Part shown: positions 9,716 through 59,239 of the stretch, one piece after another
Layout: each line of letters opens with the position of its first letter
How positions within the stretch are numbered: the stretch's first letter is position 1
DNA from: an uncultured virus (IMG/VR IMGVR_UViG_2930745263_000002)
Taxonomy: Duplodnaviria; Heunggongvirae; Uroviricota; Caudoviricetes
Strand: one strand, 5' to 3'
IMG/VR virus record: IMGVR_UViG_2930745263_000002
DNA: 64,000 bases
Translations under genes and position numbers: made by a program
Notes under the pieces: model-generated
Databases searched by the model: none
Told to the model about the DNA's origin: nothing
Seen by the model: only the letters and a program-made list of their open reading frames with translations

Positions 9716-10606
9716 TCAGAGGGTGGGAAAGGCCGGCCGCCAGGAGGCGGTGAGGCGGGCGGTGTTGGTGGGGTCGGTGGCCGTCCAGCGCAGCTCGCTG
9801 CGCCCGGGCGGGAGGCTGAAGGTGTCCAGGCGGCTGGTGCCGGCGAGCGGGACGTTGCCGCCGTTGCGGCGCAACACGGAGCGCCAGGTGGGCCGGGTGT
9901 CGATCTCGACCCAGTCGCCGGCCGGGATCGTCGTGGTCATCTGCAGGCGGCGGCCGGACTCGACGTGGGTGATCGTCGGGTTGGCGCAGGGGCCGGTGAT
10001 CCGCAGGACGGGCCAGGTGGGGGCCTTGCCGCCGACGTCGATCCAGCCGGGCCGCACGGCGCCGCCGGGGGCCGGGTTCACGACGATGGGCGCGACGACG
10101 GGCGCGGTGAACCCGCCGCCGGAGATCATGCCGAGCGGGATCGTGGTCCCCTGGAGTTCCTCGCCGTAGTACAGGTGGTCGGCGGCCAGAAACTCCATGT
10201 CGAGCGGCACCCACCCGTGCACGAGCGAGGAGAGTTCCGCCTCGAGCTTGCGGAGCCGGCCCAGCAGCACACGCACGTCCCGGCCGGGGAACTTCAGGCG
10301 CAGCTCGGTGGTCGCCCCGCCGGTCTGGCGCAGCGCCGGCTCGTCGTGGACGCGCTGCAGTGCGTCCAGGACGTCCAGGGCGCGGTCCGGCTCGCCGGGC
10401 GTCTTGATCGCCGCGTCGATGCGGACGGTCCGGCCGGCGTAGTAGTCCGCGCCCAGCCAGATGCCGTCCGAGGCCGGCGGCTCGACGTCGGCGGTGCGCA
10501 CGTCGGCCCGGCCCAAGCCCTCGATCGCGGCGATCGGCACCGGCGTGCGGGTGCCGATGACGACTCCGCCGAGCTCGTGCTGGTAGTCGTTCAGGACGGC
10601 GTTCAT
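9716..10606 (-). CDS. Distal tail (Dit-like) protein
   Basis: Directly after tape measure; TWPVLRITGP.NP, LPPGRSEL. Confidence 0.75.
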   Translation of the reverse strand: MNAVLNDYQHELGGVVIGTRTPVPIAAIEGLGRADVRTADVEPPASDGIWLGADYYAGRTVRIDAAIKTPGEPDRALDVLDALQRVHDEPALRQTGGATTELRLKFPGRDVRVLLGRLRKLEAELSSLVHGWVPLDMEFLAADHLYYGEELQGTTIPLGMISGGGFTAPVVAPIVVNPAPGGAVRPGWIDVGGKAPTWPVLRITGPCANPTITHVESGRRLQMTTTIPAGDWVEIDTRPTWRSVLRRNGGNVPLAGTSRLDTFSLPPGRSELRWTATDPTNTARLTASWRPAFPTL

Positions 10607-33133: not shown

Positions 33134-34183
33134 TCACAGGACCTTGTCCCGCAGGGTCTGCGCGATCGCCCGCATCAGCAGAGGCGGCACTGAGTTGCCC
33201 AGCCGCATCCACACCTTGTCGACGGGGCTGTTGCCCCAGTCGTACTCGTCGGGGAAGGACTGGAGCCGGGCCAGCTCGCGGATGCCCAGGAGCCGGTCCT
33301 CGTCGGGGTGGAGCAGGCCGTTGCGGGACGCGCTGATCTCCTTGATCAGCGTGTAGGAGGGCCGGTCCCAGGCGAGGCGCTCCAGGCTGAAGTAGGCGTC
33401 CTTCCCGCCGGCCCGCCGCAGGGCGTCGCCGCCGTTCTCGCCGGGGCGGATGAGCGGGGCCACCAGGGCGGCCTTGCCGGAGGGGCGCTGGAAGGGGCCG
33501 GGGTCGGTGAGGTCGGCGAGGGCTTCGCGGACGGTGATGGGGCGCGCGATCGCCGCCGGGTGGGGCGGCTTGATGCCGAGGTCCGCGCGGACCCCGACGA
33601 AGATCATGCGCTGTCGGCGCTGCGGGACCTGGAAGTAGCTGGCGTCCATCAGGCGGGCGACGACCCGGTAGCCGGGCCGCGCCTGCTTGAGGGTCTGCAG
33701 GATCTCGACGAACAGACTGCGCATCTTGCCCTTGACCATGCCGGCGACGTTCTCCATGACGAACGCCTTCGGCTGCCAGTGCTCCAGCAGCCGTACGTAC
33801 TGGCGGAAGAGCTGGTTGCGCGGGTCGTCGACCTGGCGGCGGCCGACGACGGAGAAGCCCTGGCAGGGCGGACTGCCGTCGAACACGTCGAGTTCGCCCG
33901 GCTCCAGGCCCAGGCTGGCCGGGTCGAAGCCGGTGATGTCGCCGTGGTGGAGCGGGACGTGGGGGAAGTTGCGGGCGAAGGTCGCCGCGGCGTGGTCGTC
34001 CCACTCGACGGCCAGCAGCTCCCGGTAGCCGGCCATGGAGTAGCCGAGGCTGGAGCCGCCGGCCCCGGCGAAGGTGGACACCACGGTCGGCGCGTCGGCG
34101 GCGGCCGGCGCGAGGTGGGCGGCCCACATCTCCGCCAGGAGCTGGCCGTACGCGAGGCGGGAGTTGATGACCGGCGCGCTCAC
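33134..34183 (-). CDS. DNA (cytosine-5) methyltransferase
   Basis: FAGAGG, GSPPCQGFS, ENVAG, QRRQRMIF, RLQSFPD, LGNSVPP. Confidence 0.92.
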   Translation of the reverse strand: MSAPVINSRLAYGQLLAEMWAAHLAPAAADAPTVVSTFAGAGGSSLGYSMAGYRELLAVEWDDHAAATFARNFPHVPLHHGDITGFDPASLGLEPGELDVFDGSPPCQGFSVVGRRQVDDPRNQLFRQYVRLLEHWQPKAFVMENVAGMVKGKMRSLFVEILQTLKQARPGYRVVARLMDASYFQVPQRRQRMIFVGVRADLGIKPPHPAAIARPITVREALADLTDPGPFQRPSGKAALVAPLIRPGENGGDALRRAGGKDAYFSLERLAWDRPSYTLIKEISASRNGLLHPDEDRLLGIRELARLQSFPDEYDWGNSPVDKVWMRLGNSVPPLLMRAIAQTLRDKVL

Positions 34184-34716
34184 GCGGCGGCCTCTGCGCC
34201 GGTGAAGGTGTGTCCGCAGTTGGGGCAGGTGTGGGTGGCCGGGTTGAGCAGGCCGTCGGCGATGCTCTCGTCGTACGCCGGGAAGCCCTCGGGCAGCTCG
34301 GCCGAGACCAGCCGGGCGACCTCGCCGGCGCTCCAGCCGGTGCCGTCGAGGTCGCCGTCGAGTGCGACGAGCATGGCCGCGAGGTCTTCCTCGTCGTACG
34401 TGCCGAGCTCGGCGAGCTTGTTGTCGGCCAGGTTGATACGCCGGGCCTGGTCGTCGGTGCATTCGATGACCTCGCAGCGGGCGGTGGTCGCGCCCTCGGC
34501 GCGCAGCGCGTCGCTGGTGTGGTTGCCGGCGAGCACGACGAGCTGGGTGCCGGTGTCCCGGACGACCAGGGACCGGTACTGGCCGTGCCGGCGGATGGAG
34601 GCGCGCAGGGCCTCGACGTCGCCGCGCCGGGGGTTGCCCGGGTAGCGGGTCAGGTCGTCGAGGGCGATGTCGCGGGTGGCGGTGTAGGTGACGCCGGGCA
34701 GGGTGGGTTCGGTCAT
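34180..34716 (-). CDS. ParB/Srx-like N-terminal domain protein with C-terminal CPNCG knuckle
   Basis: YPGNPRR...SIRRHGQYRSLVV...LAGNHT...LADNK. Confidence 0.8.
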   Translation of the reverse strand: MTEPTLPGVTYTATRDIALDDLTRYPGNPRRGDVEALRASIRRHGQYRSLVVRDTGTQLVVLAGNHTSDALRAEGATTARCEVIECTDDQARRINLADNKLAELGTYDEEDLAAMLVALDGDLDGTGWSAGEVARLVSAELPEGFPAYDESIADGLLNPATHTCPNCGHTFTGAEAAA

Positions 34717-34922
34717 GAGGGTGCGGGTCCTTCGCTGCGGACCGCGGCGATGACGCGCGCGGCCCAGTCGTCGGGCTCCAGGCCCCACCGGCGCGCGTCC
34801 CACTCGGTGGCGCGGTCGCGGTAGTCGAGCCAGGTGTCCAGGAGCTGGTCACGGAGGTCGGGGTCGAGGGTCAGGCGCAGCTGGGTGGCGAGCCGGCCGT
34901 ACGCCGCGGGGTGCGCCGGCAT
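34713..34922 (-). CDS. Hypothetical protein
   Basis: Translationally coupled on both sides. Confidence 0.55.
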   Translation of the reverse strand: MPAHPAAYGRLATQLRLTLDPDLRDQLLDTWLDYRDRATEWDARRWGLEPDDWAARVIAAVRSEGPAPS

Positions 34923-35383
34923 CAGGACACCGCCGGGCCGGGCTGGGCGGGCGGCTCGTCGATCAGGGTGATCAGCGCCTCGAGTTCGGCCAGGTCGACG
35001 GTCTCCACCTGCAGCGGGCCGCCGTCGGCACCGGTGATCTCGGCGCGGGCCGGCTTGTCCAGGCCGAGCAGCCGGCAGCGCCGGTCGATGACCTTCAGGA
35101 CGGTCTCGATCGCCTTGAGGTCGCCCTTGGCCGCCTTGGCCCAGGCGGCGGCCTGCATGCGGTCCAGACGCTGCACTTCCAGTTCGCGCAGGGTCTGCGC
35201 GGCCGCCGACTCGGCTTCGAGGTTCTCCTCCAGGGCGCGGTGGACGTCCTTGGACGCCGCCCCGCGCGAGGAGTAGTCGAGCCGGTCGGCGATGGTCTGG
35301 TAGTCCATGCCGGCCAGGCGCAGCGCGATCGCCTGCGCGCGGCGCTTGGACGTGGAGGCGCGTTGCGCCTTGGACGCGGGCAT
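34922..35383 (-). CDS. Terminase small subunit-like HTH protein (copy 2)
   Basis: ALRLAGMDYQTIADRLDY...GDLKAIETVLKVIDRRCRLLGLDKP...EITGADGGPL. Confidence 0.75.
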   Translation of the reverse strand: MPASKAQRASTSKRRAQAIALRLAGMDYQTIADRLDYSSRGAASKDVHRALEENLEAESAAAQTLRELEVQRLDRMQAAAWAKAAKGDLKAIETVLKVIDRRCRLLGLDKPARAEITGADGGPLQVETVDLAELEALITLIDEPPAQPGPAVS

Positions 35384-35397
35384 GCGTCAGGCCCCTC

Positions 35398-36666
35398 CTA
35401 CTCGTCGGGGTGGGCGGCGAAGTCGTAGCTCTCGCCGCTCGACTTGAGGACCGGCATCTCCGCGGTGTGCTCCTGGTAGCGGCGGCAGATCACGTCGGCG
35501 TAGCGGGGGTCGAGTTCGACGACCCGGGCGCTGCGGCCGGTGGCCTGCGCGGCGATGAGCGTGGAGCCGGAGCCGCCGAAGGGCTCGTAGACCAGACCTT
35601 CGGCCGGGCACGAGTTGTGCAGCGCCGGGACGATGAGGTCGACGGGCTTGGAGGTGGGGTGCTCGGTGTTCCGCGAGGGCTTCGGCACGTCGAAGACCGT
35701 GGTCTGGGCGTTGTCGCCGTACCAGCGGTCGCCGCCGCGGCCGAGCCGGCCGGACCCGGCGGGGGCGTCCGTGAAGCCGTACAGGATCGGCTCGTGCCGG
35801 TAGTGGTAGTCCGAGCGGCCCAGGACCATCGTGTCCTTGGCCCAGATCAGGTTCTGCCGCACGTGCCAGCCGGCCTCGAGCATCGCGGTCTCGAAGACGA
35901 TGCGGGCGGTGTCGGCGTGCGCGACGTAGACCGGGGCGCCCGGCTTGAGCGCCGCGGTCGCCACCGCGAAGGCCCCGGCCAGGAGTTCCGGCAGGTCGGT
36001 GGCTCCGTCGTTCTGGATGGTGAGCGCGTTCTTCGTCTTGCCGACGTAGTCGACGCCGTACGGAGGGTCGGTCCACATCGCGTCGCAGCGGTCGCCGTCG
36101 AGCATCTCCTCGACGGCGGCGACGTCGGTGGAGTCGCCGACCAGCAGGCGGTGGCGGCCCAGGATCCACACGTCGCCCGGCTTGGAGCGGGGTTCGGCCG
36201 GCACGTCGGGGATGTCGTCGACGTCGGTGAGCGGCTCGTCCTCGGTGTCGGTGCCGAGGAGTTCGCTGACGTCGGCGTCGCTGTAGCCGGTGCCGTCGAG
36301 GTCGCCGTCGAGGTAGGTGAGGAGTTCGGCGAGCGCGTCGGTGTCGTACGTGCCGAGCTCGGCGAGCTTGTTGTCGGCCAGGTTGATGCGGCGGGCCTGG
36401 TCGTCGTCGCACTCGATGATCTCGCAGCGCGCGGTGGCGTGGCCCTCGGCCTTGAGGGCGTCGTGGGTGTGGTTGCCGGCCAGGATCACGTACCGGTCCT
36501 CGCCGGTGGCGCGTACGACCAGGGACCGGTACTGGCCGTGCCGGCGGATGGAGGCGCGGATCGCGTCGACGTCACCGCGGCGGGCGTTGCCGTCGAAGCG
36601 GTCGAGCTGCTCGAAAGGGATGTCGCGGGTGGCGACAAAGGTCACGGTGGGCGTGGCAGTGCCCAT
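35398..36666 (-). CDS. ParB-like domain fused to N6/N4 DNA methyltransferase (beta class)
   Basis: LADNK ParB part; GDVWILGRHRL, TDPPY, HPTSKP, EPFGGSGST. Confidence 0.9.
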   Translation of the reverse strand: MGTATPTVTFVATRDIPFEQLDRFDGNARRGDVDAIRASIRRHGQYRSLVVRATGEDRYVILAGNHTHDALKAEGHATARCEIIECDDDQARRINLADNKLAELGTYDTDALAELLTYLDGDLDGTGYSDADVSELLGTDTEDEPLTDVDDIPDVPAEPRSKPGDVWILGRHRLLVGDSTDVAAVEEMLDGDRCDAMWTDPPYGVDYVGKTKNALTIQNDGATDLPELLAGAFAVATAALKPGAPVYVAHADTARIVFETAMLEAGWHVRQNLIWAKDTMVLGRSDYHYRHEPILYGFTDAPAGSGRLGRGGDRWYGDNAQTTVFDVPKPSRNTEHPTSKPVDLIVPALHNSCPAEGLVYEPFGGSGSTLIAAQATGRSARVVELDPRYADVICRRYQEHTAEMPVLKSSGESYDFAAHPDE

Positions 36667-36927
36667 GTCGGCTCCGTACACCCCCAGTGCCGTGATCCAT
36701 TTTCCCGTACGCCGGCCGCGCTGGAGGCGGGCGTCGCCGGCAGCGCCCCGGCCGCACCCGCTCGTGGTGCCGGCACCGGGGCCGGTCGGGGTGCCGGCAT
36801 AAGCCCAGCACAGGGCGGGTTTTGGGGGCTTGCATCCGGGGCGGGAGCGGAGTGATGAATGGCGTGCCGCCCCGGTAACCGCGGGCTGGGGCGGCACCCA
36901 GGACGCGACGAATCTCGAAGGAGAACC

Positions 36928-37446
36928 ATGGTGGGCGAGGGCGAGAGCAGCAACCGCGAGCGAGCGGTGTGGGGCGAGGCGGCGGTGGGCTACTACAGCC
37001 GCAGCCGGGAGGCCCTGGGCAAGGAGCCGACGGCGATCGAGGACATCGCGATGGCGCTGGGGGCCTGCGAGATGGGCGGCCGGTTCGACGACAGCATGCT
37101 CGACGGGCGGTGCGGAGTGCTGGGCGAGGACCGGGAGATCGCCGAGGAGGTGATCGGGGACCTGCTGACCAACGTGTTCCACGCGGCCGACGGCGCGGTG
37201 ACGCCCGAGCTGCTGCTGAACGCGGTGACCGGGGCCGAGTACCGCGAGGAGGCGGCCCGGGCGGAGGCGTGGCGGCGGCTGGGCCGGGCCCGGCCCTTCG
37301 GCGAGTTCCTCGCAGCGGTGCGGCAGGCCCTGGTGACGGTCCATGACCTCGACGCGGACGGGATGCTCGAGTCGGCCGCGCGGATGTTCCACGAGGAGGC
37401 GGAGGAGGAGCGGTTCGCTCTGGCCGCCGAGCGGCGCGGGCGGTAG
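36928..37446 (+). CDS. Hypothetical acidic helical protein
   Basis: GAAGGAG RBS; IGDLLTNVFHAAD. Confidence 0.7.
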   Translation: MVGEGESSNRERAVWGEAAVGYYSRSREALGKEPTAIEDIAMALGACEMGGRFDDSMLDGRCGVLGEDREIAEEVIGDLLTNVFHAADGAVTPELLLNAVTGAEYREEAARAEAWRRLGRARPFGEFLAAVRQALVTVHDLDADGMLESAARMFHEEAEEERFALAAERRGR

Positions 37447-37863
37447 CAGCCCCAACGCCGTCGGCCCTGGTGACGGGGTCCATTCGTCACCAGGGCCAAC
37501 CTCCACCTGCTCAGGGTGGTCTGGGGCGCGCTGGGCGCCGGGAGCCGCCAGTGGCGGGCGTGTGGTCGCGGGGGCCCGGCGGTCTTCTCGGCACGGGGGG
37601 ATGAGAGAAGGGAACAGGGTGTTCGCGCCGGGCCCTCTGCGCTCTGATGATCAGATGACGGCTGGTGTGCGTCAACGAGCGTTCGGCGTCACGGGTGCCG
37701 TGAACCGCATACCGGGCGGGGCGGTGGCGGCGGCCGGGGAGAAAGATCGTCGTGCCGTACAACCAGAAAGGGTTCCCCCAGGTCATGAGTCATGACGTCT
37801 GGAGGAACCCGGAGTGAGATGGAGCGATCGGCAGCGGCTGGCCTGCGGCCGCGCCGGGCTGCT

Positions 37864-44563: not shown

Positions 44564-47500
44564 TCACTCCCCCGCCGTGTTGGTGCGCAGGGTGGCCAGG
44601 AAGCCGTCGAGGTCCTCGGGGCGGAGCAGGACGTCGCGGGCCTTGGAGCCTTCGGCGGGGCCGACCACGCCCTTGGCCTGCAGGAGGTCCATCAGCTGGC
44701 CGGCCTTGGCGAAGCCGACGCGCAGCTTGCGCTGGAGCATCGACGTCGAGCCGAACTGGGTGGAGACGACCAGCTCGGCCGCCTGCGCCAGCAGTTCGAG
44801 GTCGTCGTCGGTGAGGTCCTCGTCGGTCGCCTTCTGCTGCTGGGTGCCCTCGGCGACGTCGTTTCGGAAGACGGGCGTCATCTGGCTCTTGCAGTGCCGG
44901 ACGATCACGTCGATCTCGTCCTCGGTGACGTAGGCGCCCTGCACGCGTGCGGGGGTGTTGGCTCCCATCGGCAGGAACAGTCCGTCGCCCTCGCCGATCA
45001 GCTTCTCGGCGCCGGGCTGGTCGAGGATGACCCGGCTGTCGGTGAGGGAGGCGGTGGCGAAGGCGAGCCGGGAGGGCACGTTCGCCTTGATCAGACCGGT
45101 CACGACGTCCACAGAGGGGCGCTGGGTGGCGAGCACCAGGTGGATGCCGGCGGCGCGGGCGAGCTGGGTGATGCGGACGATGGAGTCCTCGACGTCGCGC
45201 GGGGCGACCATCATCAGGTCCGCGAGCTCGTCGACGATGACGAGCAGGTACGGGTAGGGCTTGAGCTCGCGCTCGCTGCCCGCCGGGGCCTTCAGCTTGC
45301 CGCTGGTGACGGCCTTGTTGAAGTCGTCGATGTGCCGGTAGCCGTACTCCGCGAGGTCGTCGTAGCGCAGGTCCATCTCCCGTACGACCCACTGGAGGGC
45401 CTCGGCGGCCTTCTTCGGGTTGGTGATGATCGGCGTGATCAGGTGCGGGATGCCTTCGTAGGCGGACAGCTCAACCCGCTTGGGGTCGATCAGGACCATG
45501 TGCACGTCGTCGGGGGTCGCCCGCATGAGGATGGAGGTGATCAGGGCGTTGATGCAGGAGGACTTGCCGGACCCGGTGGCTCCGGCGATCAGGCCGTGCG
45601 GCATCTTCGCGAGGTTGGCCAGGACGTAGCCGCCCTCGACGTCCTTGCCGAGCGCGACCAGCAGCGGGTGGTCGTCCTCGGTGACCGCGGCCAGGCGCAG
45701 CACGTCCCCGAGGTTGACCACCTCGCGGTCGGTGTTCGGGACCTCCACGCCGACCGCCGACTTGCCGGGGATCGGGCTGAGGATCCGCACGTCCGGGCTG
45801 GCGACCGCGTACTCGATGTTCTTCGCCAGCGCGGTGATCCGCTCGACCTTCACCGCCCGCCCGAGCGTGACCTCGTAGCGGGTGACCGTCGGACCGCGCG
45901 AGAAGCCGGTGACCTTGGCATCGACCTTGAACTGGGCGAAGACGGTGGTCAGTGCCTGGATCACGGCGTCGTTGGCCTCGGTGTGCTCCTTGGCGGGGGT
46001 GCCGCTCTCCAAGAGGTCCAGCGCCGGCAGCGCGTAGGTGTTGCCGCTGGCGAGGCGGTGCTGCGCCGGGCGCGGGGTGACCTCGGCCGGGGCGGCCGGC
46101 GCTTCGGCCACGGGCTCGGCCTGCTGCGGGAGGACCTGCTCGTCCTCCGTGCTCTCCGGCGCCCCCTCCGGGCCCCAGATGTACAGACCCCTGCGCGGCC
46201 GGTGCATGAGCTGGTCGTTGACGTCGGAGGAGAGCCACGTCTGGACGGTCGCCCGGTCGTATCCGCTGCTGTACTCGTTGCTGAGGCGGGCGAAGATCTC
46301 CTGGGTGGAGCAGCCCGGGGCACCGGACTCCTTGACCACGCGCCGTACGAAGGCGCGGCGCGGGTCGACGCTCTTGTCCTCGGTCGGGTCGACCGATGCC
46401 GGGGCGGACGGGCGTACGGGGGTGGCCGGCCGCGTGGTCGCGGTCGGGCGCGTCGCGGGGTGCGGGGTGCGTCCGCCGGCGTTGCGGTAGCGGTCGAACT
46501 CGACGACGACGTCGTCCTTGGCCGGGGCGGCGGGCGCGGTCCGGGTCGTGCCGCCCGCGCGGGCGTCGGTGACGCCCAGGGTGCTCCAGATCTGCGACGG
46601 GGGCAGGCCCAGGCGCTCGGCCGTCGACCCGAAGCCACCGTTGCGCGCGGGGGCCGGCGTCGTTGCCCGTCCCTGCGCGGCGCGGGGCGCGGGCGCCGAC
46701 GCGCGGGCGCCGGCACCGACGAGGGTGTCGCCGTCCGTCTCGTCCTCCAGGTCGTCCAGGAGGTGGCGGATCCGCTCGAAGTCCCAGCGGGTGTCGTACT
46801 GGTCGCCGATCGCGGCGCGGATGTCGGCGATCGCCTTGTCGTCCAGCGACGGGCGGATCCACGTGTGCTTCTCGGCCAGGGCGGCGATGTTCTCCGGGTC
46901 GGAGTCGTTGACGTACTTGCCCTTGGCGGGCATCGGCCGGCTCACGCCGGAGCCCTTGAGCTTGGCGTAGAGCGAGCCGTCGAACTCGAGCTTGGACAGG
47001 TCCATCGCCCGGTAGTCGTCGGGGAACACGTAGCGGGTCTCGTTGCGCTCGCCCATGCGCATCCCGATCCGGGAGTCGTACTGGGACTTGTTCTCGCCGC
47101 CGCCCATGTTGGGGCCGGTGCCACGCTGCACGGCGTCGATCTCGTCGACGCCGGCCTTGCGGCCCTTCTTCTTGATCCGGCGCTTGGCGACCGCGGCTTC
47201 CGGAACCTGCTCGAAGAGGTCGGCGACCTCGTCGCTGACCAGGATGATCGCGGGCTCCCGCTCGGAGGGGGTCAGCTTGCCGTTGACCCGGGCGGACCGG
47301 CCGTCGACGACGGCCATGGCGGCGTCGAGCTGCAGCAGCGCCTCCTCGGGGGTGGTGGCCACCCAGTCGATGACGGGGCGGTTGCAGCCCGGGCGCTTCT
47401 CCAGGAACGGCTTCAGCCACGGCCGGGCCGTCGCGCCGCCGCCCATGTCGGTCATCCAGATCACCGCGTCGGCGCAGCGGGTCAGGTACGACAGGATGAC

Positions 47501-48430
47501 GTGGAGCAGGACGGACTTGCCCGAGCCGCGCATGCCGGCGATGAGGACCGCGTTCTGCCGCATCAGCAGCATGACCAGCTCGCCGTCCTCGTAGACGGCG
47601 ATCGGGAACGGGTCGTTGATGCTGATCGGGCCGTGCTCGTCCTCGAGCGGGAAGGACTCGGAGAGGACGTCGCGGGTGGTGACGTGCATCCACACCTGGC
47701 CGGCCGCGCCGCGGATCTCCTCGAAGCGCACGCTGCCGGCGCGGACGTCGCCCTTGGCGACCTCGATCGCGCGGACCTCGTTCTCCAGGCGGGCGGGGGT
47801 CACCGAGCCGTTGGACGCCGTCAGGTCCAGACGGATGCTGTAGCCGGAGCCGCGGTCGATGCGCTCGCCGGTCTCGCGTACGCCCTTGAGGTTGCGGCGC
47901 AGGAAGACGCCCTCCCACTCGGTGGCCTCACGGCCGGCCGGGTCGATCGTGTACCGGCCCTCGTGCTCGGCGGCGATCTCCTCGCGGCGGGAGTAGCGGA
48001 ACCAGGGGTACAGCAGGGTGTAGATGGCGGTCGCGCCGATGTAGGAAGCGGCGCTGGTCAGGCTGAAGGGCGTGGCCGTCGAGGCGTAGGTGAGCCACGT
48101 GGTGGCGGCGCCGACGGCCGTCGTCAGGTACAGGCCCTGCCAGCGGTTCATGCCGCGCAGGCCCCGGGAGCGCTCGGCGTCGCCCTTGGCCCAGGCGCCG
48201 AGCGCGGTGGCGCCGGTGGAGACCAGGGCGACGCCGCCCATGGCGAGCGAGGCGTGGGTGCCCAGCGGCAGGCCCATCAGCTCGAGGGGGGTGCTGTTGG
48301 CGATGGCGTCGAACTGGTTCAGGAAGCAGGCGCCCGCGCCGACCCACAGACTGCTGACCGGGACGGTGGCGGCACGACCGAGCCTGTAGGCGTCCTGGGG
48401 CGGGACGCTGCTGCGGGTCTTCGTAGCCAT
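44564..48430 (-). CDS. traB: TraB-like conjugative DNA translocase fused to a second, chromosomal-type FtsK motor (alpha-beta-gamma)
   Basis: N-terminal TMs; Walker A GMRGSGKS with DEVAD; central wHTH; then [39 protein letters not shown] and a gamma domain [16 protein letters not shown]. Confidence 0.88.
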
Positions 48431-48491: not shown

Positions 48492-50525
48492 TCAGTTCTG
48501 GACGTTCCAGAACTCGGTCTCGTTCGGGCGCGGGTTCTCGTGACGGTCGATGTCCTCGGCCTGCTCGATGCGCCAGGACTCGATGACGCTCTGGACCATG
48601 TCGACCATCCCGGCGTTGGCCGAGGCGAACTCGAGGATCATTTCGACGACGCCGGGCTTGACGCCGTACTGGTCGCCCAGGCGCTCGGCCATGCGCATCA
48701 GGCTCTCGGCGAAGTTCTCGAACATCGGGGCGAAGTCGTCGAGGTGCTGGGTGAGTTCCTCGACGGACTGCGGCTCGTACTGGCCGGTGACGAAGTCGAA
48801 GGCTTCGGAGACTGCTTCGATCGGGGTGGCACCCACGGTTTTGGCTCCTGTCGTGGTGGGGGTGGACGGGACATGGATCGGGACAGGCGCCCCGGGCTTG
48901 ACCTTGACGGCCTTCTTGAGGCTGACCTTGCGGGCGACGGAGGCGGCGATACCGACGGGGCTGGCCATCCCGGTGGCGGCGTAGTGCCGCAGCAGCCAGG
49001 AGGAGACCTTCTTCCGGCGCATGACCCACTGGCCGGAACGCAGGGCCTTCGCCAGGCCCCAGGCCATGCCGCGGGCGATGCGCGGCATGAAGTTGGGGCC
49101 GCTGCTGGAGTTGGCGATCCGCAGCATGTGCCGGTGGGCCCAGCCCAGGCGCTTGCCGAGGCCCATGACGCCCTTGGCGATCAGCGGGGAGACGAAGGCG
49201 TTGCCCGCCCGCATCGCCCGGCGGCCGCCGCGCCACAGCTTCTTGCCGCCGCGCTTCATCATGCGGACCTTGCGGCTGGTCGCAGCCCGCTTCAGGCGCC
49301 GGTGCATCTTCTTCGCGCCCTTGGTGTACGACTTCTTCTTCGGCGTCGCAGCCGCCGTCTTGCCCTTCCGCTTACCGGCGGCGGTCGTCTTCCGCTTCTT
49401 GAAGATGCCGCGACGCTTCGTCTTCGTCGGGGACTTCTTCTTGGTGGTCTTCTTCGTGGTGGTCGGCTTTTTCTTCGGCGTGACCGGGGTCTTCTTGCCG
49501 GCCTTCTTCGCCGCCTTCGCCGCCCGGGCCGCGGCGGCGGCCTTGCGTCCGGTGCTCTTGACCGTCGGCTTCGGCGCGGTGGTCCTCTTCTTCTTCAGCG
49601 CCGCCTTCTTCTTCGCGGCCGCGCTCTTCTTCGCCGCCGCCGTCGACCCCGTGGAGGAGCCGCCGGAGGAGCCGCGGCCGCGGCCGGTGAGCTTGGCCAG
49701 GGCGCGCTTGGTCAGTCCGGGCTTGGCGTGCGCACCGGTGTTCCGGCTCGTCGACCCGCCGGTACCCGAGCGGGTGCCGGCGCCCGGCCGGGTGGCCGAG
49801 CTGTTCGGCTTCGTCGTACCGCCGCCGGTCCGCGCGGCGGACGACCTCGAGCCCAGACCCCCGGCGCCGGTACGGCCGGTGGACCTGCCGGGGCCGGTGC
49901 CGCGGCCGCTGGTGACGTGACGGCTGGCCAGGCCCTTGCCGGTGCCGGCCGCGCCCTTGCCCGCGCCGGTCTTCGCGGCGGTGGCGTTGCGCTTGGCCGC
50001 GCGGGCCCCGGCGCTCGGGCTCGCTCCGCCGGACGCCTGGGCGGCGGTCTTGCGGCCGGCGGCGCCCTTGCCGCCGCGGCCGAACAGTCCGCCGCCGCTC
50101 TTGCCGCCGGTGGCCCCGGTGCCCCTGCTGCCCAGGACGCGGCCCCCGGCGCGGGCGGAGGGGTTGGTGCGCGCGGTACGGGCGGCGCGGCTGCCCTTGT
50201 TGGCGCGGCGGTCGCGGGCCCGGCGCCACAGGGCCTTCACGCCGAGGGCCGTTCCGATGACCGCGGCGATCGCCAGGCCGATCATCATCCACTGGCCGTA
50301 GAGGTGGGCAAGGTAACTCGCTGCAATCATCGCGATCGGCGGGGCGGCGGTGATGGCGAGGGTCGTGAGGCCGCTGATCGGCTCGGAGTCGATCTCGGCG
50401 GCGGGCTTGGTCGCCGCGCGGGGGGTGGGCGCGGCGGGCGGCGGAAGGGTGGCGGTGCCGGCGCCCGGAGCCCCAGGCGCAGCCGCCGCCGGGGGCTGCG
50501 TGTTGAAGTCGAAGTTGGTGCTCAC
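48492..50525 (-). CDS. Membrane-anchored, highly basic low-complexity protein upstream of traB (TraA position)
   Basis: Two TMs, Lys/Arg/Ala/Thr-rich centre, acidic C-terminus. Confidence 0.75.
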
Positions 50526-51465: not shown

Positions 51466-53871
51466 TCAGTTGTCGGTGCCCGTGAGGGCTTCGGTCTCGG
51501 TCTCGTCGCCGGTCTCGATCACCCGGCGGCGGCCCGCCTTGTACAGGTCTCGCGCCGCGCTGAGTCGCTTCGCGGCGGTGGCCTTCGGGCGGCCGGTGAT
51601 CTTCTCGGCTTCGCCCGGGACCTTGTCGGTCCCGAGCCGTACGGTGTCGGCGCCGCCGCGAGACCACATGACGTCCAGGAGTTTCTGGGTCTCGGCGTGC
51701 CGGGGTTCCAGGGACGAGACCTTGGGGTCCGTGGTCTCGCGAGACTTCGTGTCGCTGGTCTCGTCGGTCTCGCGGGACTTGGTCTCGGAGGTCTCGCGAG
51801 ACTTCGCGCCGGAGGTCTCGCCGGTCTCACGAGACTTGGTCTCGGAGGTCTCGCGAGACTTCGCGCCGGAGGTCTCGCCGGTCTCGTCGGTCCCGCGAGA
51901 CTTGGTCTCGCCGGTCTGACGAGACTTCGTCCGGCTGGTCCCTCCGGTCCCTCGGGACTTCGGCGAGACCGGGGTCTCGGCCGGGTTGCCGTCCTTCTGC
52001 TCGGCGAGGGTCTCGGAGACCGGGATGCCGAGCTTGGCGAGGGTCAGCGGGCGCAGCTCCTCCTGGGTGGCTGCCTTGCGCCACTTCCGCCGGCCGTACT
52101 TCTGCTTGAGCGAGTCGAGGTAGACGACACGCTCGCGTTCCTGCTTCAGGGCCTCGTCCAGGCCCCGGATCTTCCAGACCCGCATGCGGCGGACGAGGAT
52201 GGCGGTCGAGGGCAGGGCGAGCAGCCAGCGGTCCAGGCCGGCCGACTCGATGTGCTTGCCGCTGCTGAGCGCGGCGACGTGGGCGACGGCGTGCCGGCCG
52301 CCCTCGGTGGCGAGGACGAAGAGCATCGGCATCACGGTGTGCATGCCGACCGCGACCGGGTCGCCCCAGCTGGCCGAGGCGTTGAACCAGATCGTGGCGA
52401 CCGTCAGGCCCCAGGCGGCGTGCCGCAGCAGGGGGAACGGCATCCGCCTCCACGTCAGGAGCAGGTCGAAGGCGATCAAGACGACGATGCCAGCGTCGAC
52501 TCCGACCGGCAGCCACTTCGAGAAGTCCCCGAAGCCCTTCTCCTCGGCCAGCTCGCGCACGGCCGTGTAGGAGCCGGTGAAGCCGATCGCGCCGATGCAG
52601 CCGGCGCCGACGATGATGATGGCGATCAGCACCCAGTGGACCCAGGTGACCTGCTCCTCGCCGGTCTTGCGACGCTCGATCCGCTCCTGCCGGCGGGCGT
52701 CCTTGTCCTCCCTCCTCAGCTTCTTGGCCTGCAGCTTGACGACGGTGGGGTCCAGGGCGGCGGCCATCTTCTGCTCGGCCGCCGCGGTGAGCTCCTTCGC
52801 TTCCTCCTTCTCCTGGTCAGCGAACCGGCGGACGGCGGCCGCCGTCTCGAGGTCCTTCATGCTCTGCTCGCGGATGCGCGCGGCGACCTCGCCGGCCTGC
52901 TCCCGCTCCCGGATCGCGGCCTGCCGCTCGGATTCCGCTTCGGCCTGCGCCTGGGTGCGGACGCGTTCCGCTTCGTCCTGCGCGGCGGTGCGCAGCGCGG
53001 TGGCCGCGGCCTCCGCGCGCTCCCGGATCGCCTCTGCGGCCTGCTGGGCCTCGGACCGGATCCGGTCGGCGTCCTGACGGCTGCGCCGGGCCTCGGTCTG
53101 GGCCCGCTCGACGTCGTCGGCGGCCAGCGTGCGGGCCCGGTCGGCCTCGGCGATCGCGTCTGTGCGGACCTGCTCGGCGTCCGCACGGCCGGCGTCCAGG
53201 GCCCGCTGCGCGTCGGCGAGGATGCCGTCGGCGCGGTTGCGGGCCAGGGCCAGGATCCGCTCGCCCTCGCGGGTGGCGGCGTCCCGGATCGAGGTGGCCT
53301 CGGCCTGGGCGGCGTCGCGGACGGCTTCCGCGTCGCGCTCGGCCTGGGCCAGGCGCTGGGTGGCGCTGTTCTCCGCGGCAGCCCGGGTCTGGTCCGCGGC
53401 GCTGCCGGCGTCGGAGCGGATCCGCTCCGCCTCGGCCCGGGCGTTGGTGACCTCGGTCGCCGCCTCCCGGTGGGCCCGGGCCAGCCGCTGGGCCGCGGCG
53501 GTCTTCGCCTCCTCGGCGGCGGTGGTGCGCAGCTGCTCGGCGTCGGCCGCGCCCTGTGCCTGGATCCCCTCGGCCTGCCGGCGGGCCTCGGTGAGGACGG
53601 CGGTGGCCTGCTCGTCGGCCTGCGTGCGCAGGGCTTCGGCCTTGGTCTGGGCCTCGGCGAGGAGCTCGCCGACGGTGGACTCGGCCTCGGCGAGTGCTTC
53701 GGCGCGGGTCGTCTCCGCCAGACGCTCGGCGTCGGCGAGCAGGGTCTCGGCCTCGGTGCGGGCCGTCGCCAGCAGCTCCTCGCCGGTGGGGTCGGTCTTG
53801 GCGGCAGCCGCTTTCGCCGCGGCGGCGGGGGCGCCGCCCCGGGCTTTGGTGTTGCGGCGGTTGTTTGCCAT
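51466..53871 (-). CDS. Coiled-coil + DUF2637 (SpdB2-like) membrane protein with C-terminal repeats
   Basis: GFTGSYTAV...PVGVDAGI...TIWFNA...GMH..MPMLFV; long Ala/Glu/Arg heptad region. Confidence 0.8.
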   Translation of the reverse strand: MANNRRNTKARGGAPAAAAKAAAAKTDPTGEELLATARTEAETLLADAERLAETTRAEALAEAESTVGELLAEAQTKAEALRTQADEQATAVLTEARRQAEGIQAQGAADAEQLRTTAAEEAKTAAAQRLARAHREAATEVTNARAEAERIRSDAGSAADQTRAAAENSATQRLAQAERDAEAVRDAAQAEATSIRDAATREGERILALARNRADGILADAQRALDAGRADAEQVRTDAIAEADRARTLAADDVERAQTEARRSRQDADRIRSEAQQAAEAIRERAEAAATALRTAAQDEAERVRTQAQAEAESERQAAIREREQAGEVAARIREQSMKDLETAAAVRRFADQEKEEAKELTAAAEQKMAAALDPTVVKLQAKKLRREDKDARRQERIERRKTGEEQVTWVHWVLIAIIIVGAGCIGAIGFTGSYTAVRELAEEKGFGDFSKWLPVGVDAGIVVLIAFDLLLTWRRMPFPLLRHAAWGLTVATIWFNASASWGDPVAVGMHTVMPMLFVLATEGGRHAVAHVAALSSGKHIESAGLDRWLLALPSTAILVRRMRVWKIRGLDEALKQERERVVYLDSLKQKYGRRKWRKAATQEELRPLTLAKLGIPVSETLAEQKDGNPAETPVSPKSRGTGGTSRTKSRQTGETKSRGTDETGETSGAKSRETSETKSRETGETSGAKSRETSETKSRETDETSDTKSRETTDPKVSSLEPRHAETQKLLDVMWSRGGADTVRLGTDKVPGEAEKITGRPKATAAKRLSAARDLYKAGRRRVIETGDETETEALTGTDN
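51715..52021. repeat. Dense GGTCTC(G)/GAGAC repeat tract with a 57-bp-period duplication
   Basis: 51-nt identical copies start at 51778 and 51835; repeated GTCTCGCGAGAC palindromes. Confidence 0.85.
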
Positions 53872-56929: not shown

Positions 56930-57694
56930 ATGGCGAGAGCATTCGAGGACAAGCGGTCGGCGCACCAGAAGATTGCTGCTGGGCTGCGCCGCCGAATCAC
57001 GCGGGGAGACATCGCTCCCGGAACGCAACTGCCGTCGACGTCCGCCCTCATGGAGGAGTGGGACGTCGCCGGGACGACCGTGCAGAAGGCCCTGCTCATG
57101 CTGAAGGAGGAAGATCTCCTGGAGGGACAGCCCGGCAGGGGCGTCTTCGTCAAGGAACACACGCAGCAGGCCATCTCGCCGATGGTCTACATGCCGCCCG
57201 CCGGCGCCGGAGAGCCGTACCGCTGGATCACTGAGGCGGAGAAGCGCTCCCAGCGCGGCTCGTCGAAGCTGCTCGAAGTCACCGTCGTGACGCCCCCCTT
57301 CGAGGTGGGCCGGGCCCTGGGGCTGGAGGCCGACGGGCAGGCCCTGCTGCGAAAGCAGATCCTGTCCCTGGACGACGAGCCCACAGAGCTGACCTGTTCG
57401 TACTACCCGCTCGAGCTGGCCGAGGGGACGGCCATGATGGAGCGACGGAAGATCCGCGGCGGAACGCCTACGCTCCTGAGCGAGCTCGGCTACCCGCCGC
57501 GGGAGTTCGTCGACGAGGTCTCCTCGGAGATCCCCACGGAGGACGAGGTTCGCGCGCTCGAGCTGCCCAAGGACATGCCCGTGATGCTGACGTTCCGAGT
57601 CGTCTACTCGGACAACGAGCGGCCGATCGAGGTCTCGCTGCTGGCGAAGGCCGCGCACAAGTACCGCATGCGCTATCGGCTGTCCGTGAGCTGA
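56930..57694 (+). CDS. GntR/HutC regulator (KorSA/TraR-like)
   Basis: HQKIAAGLRRRI..G...PGTQLPST...GRGVFV followed by UTRA. Confidence 0.88.
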   Translation: MARAFEDKRSAHQKIAAGLRRRITRGDIAPGTQLPSTSALMEEWDVAGTTVQKALLMLKEEDLLEGQPGRGVFVKEHTQQAISPMVYMPPAGAGEPYRWITEAEKRSQRGSSKLLEVTVVTPPFEVGRALGLEADGQALLRKQILSLDDEPTELTCSYYPLELAEGTAMMERRKIRGGTPTLLSELGYPPREFVDEVSSEIPTEDEVRALELPKDMPVMLTFRVVYSDNERPIEVSLLAKAAHKYRMRYRLSVS

Positions 57695-57732: not shown

Positions 57733-58000
57733 TTTCGCATGCCCGCAGCCACACACCCATAAGGCTTAAGCGCTCACGGTGGTACGTTCGTGTCGCGGCG
57801 GTCCCGATCACCTCGTGGTCGGCGAACGCGCAAGTGGCCAGGCGGTCTTGCTCACCGCCCGGCCACTTCAAGCACACCGACGGGGTGATTCCCGTCGACC
57901 TCGGACCCAGCTCGTGAAAGGGGTCGCTCGTGAGCGTACCCGGTACCCCTGGCCGACGGCCAAGTGCCACAACCAGCGCACGGTGGCTGGTGAACGCCCC

Positions 58001-59239
58001 GTGAGCCTCCTGCCGATTCTGTGGGCCCTCAAAAGTGCCCCGGTCTCCGACACCACCGAGAAGCTGCTGCTCGTCACCATGGCGGAGCACGCCTTCGTCG
58101 ACGGATGCGACGCCTTTCCCTCCAAGAACACGCTCGCCGACATCGCGATGACCGATCCGAAGACCGTGCAGCGCAAGTTGCGTGCGCTGGAGGCTCGGAA
58201 GCTGATCGCTCTCGGCGACCAGTCCGCAGCCCGGTACATCGACGCCCGGTACCGGCCGAAGGTCTACGACCTGCTGATCCCGTACTCGTGGTTCCCCGAC
58301 GTCCAGCAGGTGAACGCCGAGCGCCAGCAGCGCGGTCGGCCGCCGCTCACTGCCGAGAATCGGCCCAGCATCGCAGCCGCTCCCGCTCGTAAGCGGCGCT
58401 CTGACCTGGGCAAATCGCGCAAGGCCCAGGACGCTGGCGACGGCGAAGACAGGGAGGACTCTCAGTCCCCCCTGCGAGAGGATGCCGGCGACAGCCCAGG
58501 GGGGACTGACAATCCCACCAGGGGGGACTACGAATCCCACGAGGGGGGACTGACAGACCCCCAATCCTCCCCAGACAACCCTCCCCTTCTGAACCGCCCC
58601 GAAGACACCCGTGGTGACGGCCGTAGGCCATCCACCAGCAGTAATGGGCGCGGCGGGCGCGGCGTTGCCGCGTCGAGCAAGACGGCAGCGAGGAGGAAGG
58701 TTCCTGCCGCCGGCCTTCGCACGGTCGTCGCGAACGTCCCCTCGGTGCTGGCTGCTCAGCTGGAGAATGAGTTCCCCCGCGGCCTGCCGGCCTCGGTCAA
58801 CGAGGCGATCGGCCTGGCGCTCGAGGACCGCACCGTGGACCAGGTCGTCGCACGGGTGGAGCGCCGTTGGCTGCAGTGGTCGTACGAGAACGACGCGGTC
58901 GCCGAGTCCGGAAGTGGTCTGGGTCGGCCGCTCGGCGTGCTGTTGACCCTGCTCGGTCCCTCGGCCTGCTGGGGTAACAACGCTCGCTGCGAGGACGGCA
59001 CCGACATCGACACCGGAGTTGTCTGCCCGCGGTGCGAGGAGGCTCGGGAGGACAGGGCTGCTGCCGGGCGAGGCCAGGATGGTCCGCCGGCCGCCGGGTA
59101 CAGCGTGCCGTTCGAGCGGCCCACAGACGTCGAGCCCAGTCCGTACGTCCAGTGCCGGGGTGCTGGCTGCGGCCTGAAGATGATGCCGACCGAGGACGGA
59201 CTGTGCCGCGAGTGCCGTACGGAAGGGGCTTTCACGTAA
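58001..59239 (+). CDS. HTH replication initiator-like protein with C-terminal Cys knuckles
   Basis: WALKSAPV...KLLLV.MAEHA..DG..AFPS..TLA...KTVQRKLRALE; internal iterons. Confidence 0.75.
   Translation: MSLLPILWALKSAPVSDTTEKLLLVTMAEHAFVDGCDAFPSKNTLADIAMTDPKTVQRKLRALEARKLIALGDQSAARYIDARYRPKVYDLLIPYSWFPDVQQVNAERQQRGRPPLTAENRPSIAAAPARKRRSDLGKSRKAQDAGDGEDREDSQSPLREDAGDSPGGTDNPTRGDYESHEGGLTDPQSSPDNPPLLNRPEDTRGDGRRPSTSSNGRGGRGVAASSKTAARRKVPAAGLRTVVANVPSVLAAQLENEFPRGLPASVNEAIGLALEDRTVDQVVARVERRWLQWSYENDAVAESGSGLGRPLGVLLTLLGPSACWGNNARCEDGTDIDTGVVCPRCEEAREDRAAAGRGQDGPPAAGYSVPFERPTDVEPSPYVQCRGAGCGLKMMPTEDGLCRECRTEGAFT
58451..58563. repeat. Iteron-like 22-bp repeats inside the initiator gene (candidate origin)
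   Basis: AGGGGGGACT-N12 at 58498, 58520 and 58542; inverted copy at 58462-58473. Confidence 0.75.

Follow-up and report, generated by a model that had tools for sequence, protein, structure and literature searches.

In Streptomyces, double-stranded DNA is moved by two textbook pumps, TraB in conjugation and FtsK in chromosome segregation. The C-terminal winged helix of TraB reads the 8-bp repeats of the clt locus, and the 4TM N-domain of FtsK targets this translocase to the septum. EccC and EssC of type VII secretion, also containing FtsK-like ATPase domains, transport proteins and not DNA, and the domains of EccC differ in role. For the gamma domain of E. coli FtsK, passages of two papers name N1296, R1300, and E1303 as residues of the recognition helix and R1300 as a KOPS-recognition residue (PMC2533119; PMC2680272), and TraB proteins of a Streptomyces population are described in part of another study as ranging from 139 to 738 aa (PMC9513070).

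The window analysed here, i.e., the whole stretch of 64,000 nucleotides from an uncultured virus (IMG/VR record IMGVR_UViG_2930745263_000002), encodes on its minus strand a protein of 1288 residues in which, as judged from its domains, a complete copy of each kind of pump is united and both copies seem to be kept by selection. The open reading frame, already noted at 44564..48430 in a sequence-only reading of this DNA, has GC contents of 0.67/0.51/0.95 at the three codon positions, as is typical for genuine high-GC genes. Residues 1 to about 785 constitute a complete but divergent TraB-like translocase, consisting in this order of a hydrophobic N-terminus, a first motor (motor 1), a Pro/Ala/Thr linker, and a small conserved domain, and residues from about 786 to 1288 constitute a complete FtsK alpha-beta-gamma unit. 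The features of this long form are as follows:

44564..48430 (-): open reading frame for the TraB-like translocase plus FtsK alpha-beta-gamma, 1288 aa plus stop
48008..48376 (-): presumed membrane anchor, residues 19-141, three or four mildly hydrophobic segments
46787..48145 (-): TraB-like region including motor 1, residues 96-548 (hhalign, phrog_31069)
47513..47536 (-): motor 1 Walker A, GMRGSGKS, residues 299-306, invariant in 8/8 long forms
47228..47248 (-): motor 1 Walker B, IILVSDE, residues 395-401, E401 invariant in family alignment A1
47114..47134 (-): motor 1 AVQRGTG, residues 433-439, counterpart of the ATQRPS arginine-finger region of FtsK
46376..46750 (-): linker 1, residues 561-685, Ala/Thr/Pro-rich by composition
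46151..46375 (-): small conserved domain, residues 686-760, candidate winged helix (family conservation)
46037..46075 (-): fusion point, residues 786-798 (BLASTP against the full chromosomal FtsK of genome G001)
45734..46030 (-): FtsK alpha, residues 801-899 (PF17854, E 1.6e-26, 92.9 bits)
44861..45706 (-): FtsK beta motor, residues 909-1190 (PF01580, FtsK_SpoIIIE, at 909-1107, E 1.7e-71, 240.6 bits)
45560-45583 (-): FtsK beta Walker A, GATGSGKS, residues 950-957 (motif)
45215-45247 (-): FtsK beta Walker B, residues 1062-1072 (motif)
45107-45130 (-): FtsK beta ATQRPSVD, residues 1101-1108 (motif)
44624..44797 (-): FtsK gamma, residues 1212-1269 (PF09397, E 6.3e-22, 77.5 bits)
44696-44698 (-): Q1245, replacing the invariant arginine of the recognition helix (gamma alignment to PDB 2j5p and 2ve8)

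A divergent TraB-type ATPase with GMRGSGKS near 47520 had been proposed for the N-terminal half, and this holds: the motif lies at 47513-47536, and both the NCBIfam model plasmid_TraB (NF041214) and phrog_31069 match. With plasmid_TraB, an equivalog model with a cut-off of 800 bits, the N-half alone obtains 40.7 bits (E 1.1e-10) and the whole protein 104 bits, and residues 55-588 align to positions 53-596 of the 742 positions of the phrog_31069 profile (E 1.2e-43). Comparison by hhalign of the family alignment A1 with an alignment (A2) of seven TraB-model hits from genomes, six of them over the NCBIfam cut-off, gives a probability of 99.5% (E 2.6e-23, 413 columns); hhalign also aligns residues 19-141 to the N-terminal membrane region of TraB and pairs AVQRGTG with SLQRPS of TraB. 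The Pfam match of motor 1 to FtsK_SpoIIIE is weak (E 3.6e-4) and covers residues 274-314 only. Residues G299, G302, S303, G304, and K305 are invariant throughout the 21-row family alignment. The transmembrane segments read from the sequence are recovered as three or four hydrophobic stretches in residues 19-141, but these are only mild, with Kyte-Doolittle window maxima of 1.2-1.4. The Pro/Ala linker is present as well, residues 561-690 consisting of 18% Ala, 13% Thr, and 13% Pro, and linker 1 shows indels among long forms. As for the segment termed wHTH-like, its conservation is borne out, since residues 686-760 are conserved not only in long forms but also in numerous single-motor relatives, in which they can form the C-terminal domain, but a winged helix is only a candidate fold: Pfam gives no match even at E up to 10, hhalign against the C-terminal region of TraB gives nothing (probability below 1%), and Atlas feature matches to winged-helix families score only 0.76-0.79.

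By these matches the N-half is assigned to the large phage and phage-plasmid family phrog_31069, a branch of the TraB/FtsK family that PHROGs places in the category 'moron, auxiliary metabolic gene and host takeover'. Members of this family normally possess a single motor, with or without gamma. More than 50 such relatives have no motor other than motor 1; they are 35-45% identical to the N-half, have neither alpha nor beta, and often carry FtsK gamma, with none, one, or two gammas seen, and among the best 150 family representatives there is one long form. In the N-half tree the 52 short forms taken together are the sister group of the long forms, the branches being long, and a derivation of long from short forms is not readable from it, as its polarisation failed because the outgroup branches are long.

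The C-terminal half is of a different kind. A full FtsK unit had been predicted from about 46040, and indeed similarity to chromosomal FtsK begins at about residue 786 (window position 46075), which corresponds to the end of the FtsK linker, and the Pfam matches for alpha, beta, and gamma each exceed their gathering scores. One polypeptide contains two complete FtsK-family motors, just as the sequence-only reading had it. That reading would have been undermined by a TraB-type C-half; however, the FtsK model NF007615 obtains 409.5 bits, over model positions 854-1352 only and below the equivalog cut-off of 1566, as compared to the 104 bits of plasmid_TraB with the whole protein. The FtsK 4TM N-domain (PF13491) is absent among the best 25 of 29 Pfam matches of the protein. 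Identity of the C-half to chromosomal FtsK is 77-82% overall and 80-82% for chromosomal Streptomyces FtsKs on contigs of up to 11 Mb.

Phylogenetic analysis places six long forms in one clade (SH-aLRT 100) with a stem of 0.31, which lies in a 39-row clade of Streptomycetaceae FtsKs (SH-aLRT 97). The partial form P0006 joins the long forms (support 87) and breaks up this long stem, as it is nearer to chromosomal FtsK (82.8% versus 77.0% identity). These results assign the C-half to the FtsK lineage of Streptomycetaceae. Strict nesting inside Streptomyces is not secured, as placement of the long forms beyond the whole set of Streptomycetaceae FtsKs is not rejected in an AU test (p 0.345). Capture of the FtsK module is old, chromosomal FtsKs sharing 91% identity among themselves and 79% with the C-half. 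In the tree the long forms have FtsKs from Streptomyces plasmids of 264-290 kb as their closest neighbours (support 88, not starred), so that the module may have been acquired from the ftsK of a plasmid and not from the host chromosome. The earlier proposal of a captured host ftsK thus survives as to lineage and has to be qualified as to age and donor.

The fusion is no artefact and is inherited. An identical junction is found in all of the eight distinct long forms, full or partial (window, P0002-P0006, G001:C52, and L049), which are 77-95% identical, keep one open frame, and share the same N-terminus. In addition, the junction is bridged over the span 45400-46800, at about 93-96% identity, by Logan contigs of two further sequencing runs (X3 and X4), which settles the question of a misassembled junction raised together with the original observation. 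Among 61 sampled Streptomycetaceae genomes, one FtsK at 74-80% identity is present in every one (61/61), and a second copy as long form in one. Genome G001, from which the full chromosomal FtsK used for comparison was taken, carries a 91%-identical long form plus its own ftsK. The Walker A, Walker B, and QR motifs of both motors are invariant in long forms, save for GATGAGKS in L049. Values of dN/dS are 0.24-0.34 for motor 1 and 0.15-0.18 for FtsK beta, 0.57-0.73 for linker 1, and 0.77-1.6 for gamma, and indicate purifying selection on both motors. Both motors appear functional, presumably as active ATPases. A fusion of this kind was not found described in the full-text literature, the coverage of which leaves most subscription journals outside.

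The gamma domain has been altered. Of 205 positions invariant in 55 reference actinomycete FtsKs, 202 are kept, and only at the remaining three do all six complete long forms deviate; two of these three fixed changes, R1245Q and S1259A/G, are located in gamma, where 55/55 reference FtsKs have Arg and Ser. Alignment to 2j5p identifies residue 1245 as the equivalent of R1300 of E. coli, and S1259A/G affects the wing serine. The R1300 equivalent is Gln in 7/7 long forms with gamma (the six in the tree and L049), and in the gammas of single-motor relatives it is Arg in only 2/18. With Arg replaced by Gln at this position, reading of host motifs by the long-form gamma is unlikely, and the suggestion that the protein reads oriented chromosomal motifs and mobilises the chromosome through them is not supported by these seven sequences. 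A repeat search around the gene detects no adjoining clt-like repeat cluster. The only dense word array found, GTCTCGCGAGAC at 51734-51901, lies 3 kb off, inside the DUF2637 gene. In a ranking of strand-skewed octamers CGGCCTTG comes first, with ratios of 18:0 in the window and 28:3 in C52, but it was set aside as a polar motif because coding bias could explain the skew, most genes being on one strand and its reverse complement reading as Lys-Ala codons.

The element that carries the gene combines siphovirus and plasmid parts in a conserved hybrid from Streptomyces and is not a plain conjugative plasmid. Besides genes for tape measure, tail tube, capsid, portal, and terminase, the window contains genes for GntR regulators, an HTH_36 protein, and DUF2637, and over its full 64 kb it is collinear with G001:C52, with identities of 77-92% (82-92% in the long blocks). 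At the ends of C52, genes for LexA-like, SPDY, NUDIX, ParD, and Prim-Pol proteins are found and no housekeeping genes. Three neighbours are of interest in the context of the long form:

48495..50525 (-): 677-aa Lys/Ala-rich protein upstream, no family match, conserved beside the gene in long-form loci
51469..53871 (-): 801-aa DUF2637 membrane protein of the same module (PF10935, E 7.3e-32; phrog_29003, E 6.2e-68)
56930..57691 (+): GntR/UTRA regulator (family match)

The 677-aa protein has homologs with 76-83% identity in L002 and L049. In family type, the GntR/UTRA regulator corresponds to the kor regulators known from Streptomyces plasmids. Around the pump genes of 25 single-motor loci, a DUF2637 homolog is encoded upstream in nine and GntR homologs nearby in 12, and TerL and portal homologs lie within 10 kb in five, with an MCP homolog in four of these five. 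The tail of the DUF2637 protein has no similarity to gamma. Single-motor relatives occur on Streptomyces plasmids of 86-152 kb, on one plasmid of 399 kb, and on IMG/VR contigs. A more distant relative, with 26% identity over 36% of the N-half, is encoded on the plasmid-phage pZL12, for which passages of one paper state that conjugal transfer requires the major tra gene and adjacent genes (PMC3583192) and which is treated also in parts of a second (PMC4487206).

Taken together, domain content and context make it somewhat probable that the gene codes for the DNA translocase of a plasmid-type transfer and spread module in a Streptomyces phage-plasmid hybrid. ATPase activity, ring arrangement, DNA substrate, and biological role of the long form are what we infer from these data. 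In the proposed mechanism, a complete soluble FtsK module (alpha, beta motor, and gamma), derived from ftsK of a chromosome or large plasmid of the Streptomycetaceae lineage, has been joined at the very end of the FtsK linker to a TraB-like protein, the approximately 785 N-terminal residues of which would provide membrane anchor, motor 1, flexible linker, and a small DNA-binding-like domain. The protein would most likely form hexamers, with two rings threaded on the same double-stranded DNA, the TraB-like ring near the membrane forming a pore and the distal FtsK ring adding a fast and processive pump. The retargeted gamma head would probably read an element-specific word or serve for loading without polarity. 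A likely job of such a machine would be to move the double-stranded element of about 140 kb across hyphal membranes or septa, be it between mycelia, between compartments, or into spores. The boldest version, which we put forward tentatively and regard as possible rather than probable, is that of a natural two-ring, twelve-ATPase pump for double-stranded DNA with re-aimed gamma, by which a temperate phage of about 140 kb spreads in plasmid-like manner, directionally and without lysis. If this were true, the head of an FtsK ring would have been switched from the polar motifs of the host to the words of the element itself, the element would spread through hyphal walls into neighbouring mycelia and spores, and phage-plasmids would time and again have recruited parts of the host segregation machine, in many relatives gamma alone and here the whole motor, to assemble DNA-delivery systems of their own.

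Other explanations have to be considered. Labour might be divided between the halves, the TraB-like part conjugating and the FtsK part serving vertical inheritance by clearing element DNA from cross-walls or sporulation septa, or by activating via gamma an Xer-type resolvase for plasmid dimers. In favour of this, no part of the FtsK module is missing, gamma included, and its conservation is strong, and the 264-290-kb Streptomyces plasmids that are nearest in the tree keep whole FtsK copies of their own, suggesting that big replicons profit from a private FtsK; moreover, four of five long-form contigs have 140-148 kb as compared to 86-99 kb for several single-motor plasmids. However, this contrast in size is anecdotal, as single-motor forms reside on 152-kb and 399-kb plasmids too, the long form is devoid of the septum-targeting 4TM N-domain as far as the best 25 of its 29 Pfam matches go, and no Xer-type recombinase or integrase is encoded among the ORFs scanned in the window and the C52 ends. 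We consider such a division of labour unlikely, and a translocase in which both motors act on transfer of the element is preferred.

That only one motor moves DNA by ATP turnover and the other is a regulatory or scaffolding ATPase of the EccC/EssC kind appears doubtful indeed. EccC/EssC provide known cases of a single chain with FtsK-like ATPase domains in tandem, and the C-half matches type VII models weakly, with none of the cut-offs reached (TIGR03924 128.3 bits against 509, TIGR03925 67.9 against 347, TIGR03928 121.4 against 778). Also, motor 1 has diverged from canonical FtsK to a far greater extent than motor 2 and has the higher dN/dS. Nevertheless, none of the long forms has lost Walker A, Walker B, or the QR motif from either motor, and as motor 1 acts alone in the single-motor relatives it must be competent by itself there. 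Apart from the rarity of the long form (1/61 genomes, 1 in the best 150 representatives), nothing was found to speak for an assembly or annotation artefact or a decaying, functionless chimera; in view of eight sequences with one frame and one junction, the bridging contigs, and the dN/dS values of both motors, this explanation is rejected as extremely improbable. The preferred reading, a two-motor translocase for spread of the element, would offer a ready-made system for studying whether two hexameric DNA motors can operate in series, for identifying the target of a re-aimed gamma, and for following inheritance and spread of a large phage-plasmid in a mycelial, sporulating host.

Among known systems, TraB/Tra of Streptomyces conjugative plasmids and AICEs (pSVH1, pIJ101, pJV1; NF041214) is homologous to the N-half from the membrane-proximal region through the motor and shares with it the order of anchor, motor, linker, and small C-terminal domain. 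The context is TraB-like as well, as the long form adjoins GntR-type regulators and a NUDIX gene is present on the contig of a relative. In contrast to the two motors plus gamma of the long form, TraB has a single FtsK-like ATPase and is only 23% identical, similarity of its wHTH to the small domain is not detectable, and the long form resides on a phage-plasmid. Tra of plasmid-phage pZL12 (phage ZL12, 90,435 bp) is an FtsK/TraB-like protein of an element that is both plasmid and phage, but it has one motor and is only 26% identical. Chromosomal and large-plasmid Streptomyces FtsKs (e.g., NZ_CP013744.1, NC_015951.1, NZ_CP108729.1) are 77-82% identical to residues 786-1288, from which they differ in that the long form lacks 4TM N-domain and FtsK linker and sits on a stem branch of 0.31. 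EccC/EssC proteins resemble the long form in combining several tandem ATPase domains in one membrane-anchored chain, but for the EccC-like matches neither alpha nor gamma is listed. The single-motor members of phrog_31069 have the same N-half, small domain, and kind of element and, where gamma is present, mostly a gamma altered at the R1300 equivalent, and the long form is distinguished from them by a whole second motor inserted between small domain and gamma. With zero to two gammas in these relatives and a whole alpha-beta-gamma unit here, the series documents that mobile elements have acquired parts of the host FtsK step by step.

The gene occupies a single open frame of 1288 codons on the minus strand (44564-48430), and its codon-position GC of 0.67/0.51/0.95 is the pattern of a real gene in high-GC DNA. 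In the C-terminal 500 residues Pfam recognises three FtsK domains, each far over its gathering score, and residues 789-1271 align to positions 854-1352 of the NCBIfam FtsK model, i.e., to its soluble part only (409.5 bits). The N-terminal 780 residues alone give a short, sub-threshold FtsK_SpoIIIE match around the P-loop (Pfam) and match plasmid_TraB (NCBIfam, E 1.1e-10); a much better match is phrog_31069, 'FtsK/SpoIIIE-like protein' (E 1.2e-43, residues 55-588). In hhalign, a profile of 21 family members aligns to a profile of seven TraB-model hits from Streptomyces genomes, six of which lie over the NCBIfam TraB cut-off, with a probability of 99.5% and E 2.6e-23. The 413 aligned columns cover the membrane-proximal region and continue through the motor.

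Domains and motifs of the fusion protein (residue numbers)
299-306, GMRGSGKS, motor 1 (TraB-like ATPase)
395-401, IILVSDE, motor 1
433-439, AVQRGTG, motor 1
801-899, FtsK_alpha (Pfam)
909-1107, FtsK_SpoIIIE (Pfam, E 1.7e-71)
950-957, GATGSGKS, motor 2 (FtsK beta)
1062-1072, further motif, motor 2
1101-1108, ATQRPSVD, motor 2
1212-1269, FtsK_gamma (Pfam)

These profile matches and the two motif sets therefore bear out in substance the sequence-only reading, which described TraB joined to a second, FtsK-type motor. The transmembrane segments it named are present as hydrophobic stretches, although these are only mild, and its winged-helix-like segment corresponds to a conserved small domain (residues 686-760) whose winged-helix fold is putative.

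A search of 5.8 billion proteins recovered four full-length relatives possessing both motors (long forms; 1278-1286 aa, 88-95% identity) from different Streptomyces assemblies, plus the truncated record P0006. Further long forms are encoded by Streptomyces sp. H27-C3 in the genome collection (locus L002, i.e., G001:C52) and by the IMG/VR contig L049 in the viral collection. All eight align as one open frame with a common N-terminus and a common junction, and the junction sequence of the window has homologous variants in the other seven. Logan contigs from two other runs, X3 and X4, span 45400-46800, including the junction at 46075, with 54 differences from the window in X3 and 102 plus small indels in X4; a near-identical contig from run X1, which may be the window's own source, was left out of this count, and some of the runs may be those behind assemblies already counted. 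An assembly artefact at the junction, the doubt attached to the sequence-only reading, is excluded by the junction common to eight sequences and by the bridging contigs, and we consider an artefactual fusion exceedingly improbable.

Most relatives of the N-half have one motor only. Among 85 proteins from the same search, classed by piecewise BLAST, six are long forms, 22 are single-motor proteins of ~750-860 aa with an FtsK gamma domain at the C-terminal end, 30 are single-motor proteins of ~710-750 aa without gamma, three are distant family members, and 24 are ordinary FtsK or EccC-like proteins. Residues 30-770 of the query align with the single-motor protein P0007 (838 aa), whose gamma domain then aligns to query residues 1213-1281, so that the long form looks like a single-motor-plus-gamma protein in which FtsK alpha-beta was inserted before gamma or gamma was swapped for an alpha-beta-gamma unit. 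In a separate N-half tree the 52 short forms together are the sister group of the long forms; the branches are long, which leaves the direction of the event unpolarised. Gamma presence switches at least 6-7 times across this tree, and the motor and C-terminus of the family are unusually insertion-prone. HMMER, run exhaustively over 1.84 billion representatives, yielded 149 family clusters at E ≤ 1e-30; only one long form is among the best 150 representatives, and other long members have no alpha-beta but either LAGLIDADG inserts resembling inteins or a second gamma domain. For P0318, P0243, and P0209, these are LAGLIDADG_3 inserts (intein-like) in two single-motor members and two FtsK_gamma stretches in one.

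Recognisable similarity of the C-half to chromosomal FtsK starts at about residue 786, within the final dozen linker residues of FtsK. Streptomyces FtsKs encoded on chromosomal contigs of up to 11 Mb share 80-82% identity with the 499-residue C-half. Each of the 61 sampled Streptomycetaceae genomes has one FtsK, 74-80% identical to the C-half, with a second, long-form copy in G001 only, and 39 of 41 other Actinomycetes genomes have an FtsK of 68-75% identity, a range unchanged without the six unpublished genomes among the 41. In a C-half tree of 64 rows, which excludes three loci of unpublished genomes as well as three rows containing internal stops, six long forms make up one clade (SH-aLRT 100; stem 0.31 substitutions per site) within a clade (97) that also holds the 30 chromosomal FtsKs of Streptomycetaceae and three FtsKs of 264-290-kb Streptomyces plasmids; the long forms adjoin these plasmid FtsKs (support 88, not starred). 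Placement of the long forms outside all 33 of these chromosomal and plasmid rows is not rejected by an AU test (log-likelihood difference 10.2, p 0.345). Regarding the proposed capture of a host ftsK, membership of the Streptomycetaceae FtsK lineage is the safe statement from these comparisons, whereas nesting is not secured, and the donor may have been a chromosomal or a plasmid ftsK. The capture is not recent: mean identity is 90.7% among chromosomal FtsKs of the family, and 78.8% between these and the long forms. The partial P0006 (1012 aa) groups with the other long forms (support 87), and its alpha-beta part has a mean identity of 82.8% to chromosomal FtsK versus 79-80% to the other long forms, which themselves average 77.0% to chromosomal FtsK. 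This fits a single capture with faster change thereafter in the crown group. P0006 is either a slowly evolving basal lineage or a product of gene conversion with a host ftsK. Large actinomycete plasmids (loci L001, L138, L139, and L142) bear full FtsK genes of their own, and in two cases the gene next to ftsK carries the annotation Pycsar system effector family protein.

Pairwise Nei-Gojobori dN/dS values, from three genes with small counts and extreme GC3, are 0.24-0.34 for motor 1, 0.10-0.51 for alpha, 0.15-0.18 for beta, 0.57-0.73 for the linker, 0.38-0.64 for the small domain, and 0.77-1.6 for the gamma region; both motors are under purifying selection. Only three of 205 alignment columns invariant in 55 reference FtsKs are changed in all six long forms, namely I897V outside gamma, and R1245Q and S1259A/G, both within it. 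By alignment to PDB 2j5p, Q1245 is the counterpart of E. coli R1300; passages of two papers state that R1300, N1296, and E1303 of E. coli FtsK recognise KOPS and that mutants are blind to it (PMC2533119, PMC2680272). The 202 columns kept and the glutamine at the R1300 position show that the motor has been kept and the reading head altered where FtsK reads DNA, and this change argues against the earlier idea that gamma reads oriented chromosomal motifs of the host. Short forms have Arg (2/18), Trp (7/18), or else Gln, Thr, Glu, His, or Ala at this position.

The element combines phage and plasmid features.

Selected features of the window
10606-15807, tape measure, part of a siphovirus-type set
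33137-37506, minus, C5 cytosine methylase with a long N-terminal extension, adjoining a ParB_N-plus-N6/N4-methylase fusion protein
51469-53871, minus, DUF2637 membrane protein
57779-59236, plus, HTH_36 protein (486 aa) with 22-bp repeats inside the gene

Tail tube, head decoration protein, major capsid, portal, and large terminase complete the siphovirus-type set, and the window also encodes two DNA methylases, an Mrr nuclease, a WYL protein, and three GntR/UTRA-type proteins (two with a GntR domain, one UTRA-only). No integrase was seen among the window ORFs scanned. The HTH_36 gene resembles that of a plasmid replication initiator with iterons, which would suit an autonomous replicon; its repeat, CCAGGGGGGACTGACAATCCCA, has 2.7 copies at 58496-58555. 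The methylase pair has the phage head genes on one side and the regulatory region on the other. The whole window is collinear with the 89-kb G001:C52 at 77-92% identity (long blocks 82-92%), and the remaining parts of that contig contain LexA-like, SPDY, NUDIX, ParD, and Prim-Pol genes and lack housekeeping genes. Long-form contigs measure 140-148 kb in four of five assemblies, which may be the size of the whole replicon. Single-motor relatives occur on complete Streptomyces plasmids of 86-152 kb, one of them an 89.7-kb circular plasmid with annotated phage-type genes and ParA, and in IMG/VR contigs. Homologues of the window terminase and portal lie ≤10 kb from the pump in five of 25 single-motor loci (with capsid in four of these five), a DUF2637 homologue lies upstream of it in nine of the 25, and the known plasmid-phage pZL12 encodes a 26%-identical relative. 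Conjugal transfer of pZL12 is reported to require a major tra gene as well as genes adjacent to it (PMC3583192).

The palindrome GTCTCGCGAGAC has six copies at 51734-51901 (≤1 mismatch; 0.82 expected) within the DUF2637 gene towards its 3' end, where the coding repeat reads KSRETxET. Dense 8-mer clusters occur nowhere else in the window, and this array is a candidate cis-acting site of the pump module. L049 has seven copies, and G001:C52, otherwise 88% identical there, has GGTTC...GAACC-type words instead. The octamer CGGCCTTG has a strand bias of 18:0 in the window and 28:3 in C52, of which coding-strand bias is a possible source.

On balance, we lean towards a double-motor DNA translocase serving the plasmid-like life of this phage-plasmid. 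Both motors would hydrolyse ATP and their rings would stack, the membrane-anchored TraB-like ring forming the pore and the tethered FtsK ring an added processive pump, with element DNA as the substrate selected by the gamma head and perhaps also by the small domain. A division of labour, in which the FtsK part acts in septum clearance or dimer resolution, seems unlikely to us, and we give somewhat less weight still to one motor being a regulator only, as in EccC-type tandem ATPases. Catalytic motifs are all kept among the long forms, the sole variation being GATGAGKS in L049, still a valid P-loop.

Precedents exist for each part, namely FtsK itself, TraB-like pumps, mobile-element pumps with gamma domains, and plasmid-phages that conjugate. 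Full-text searches returned no account of such a fusion, and subscription journals and supplements may hold more. What is new is a complete second motor within a TraB-family protein. The TraB sizes given in a population survey are 139-738 aa (PMC9513070).
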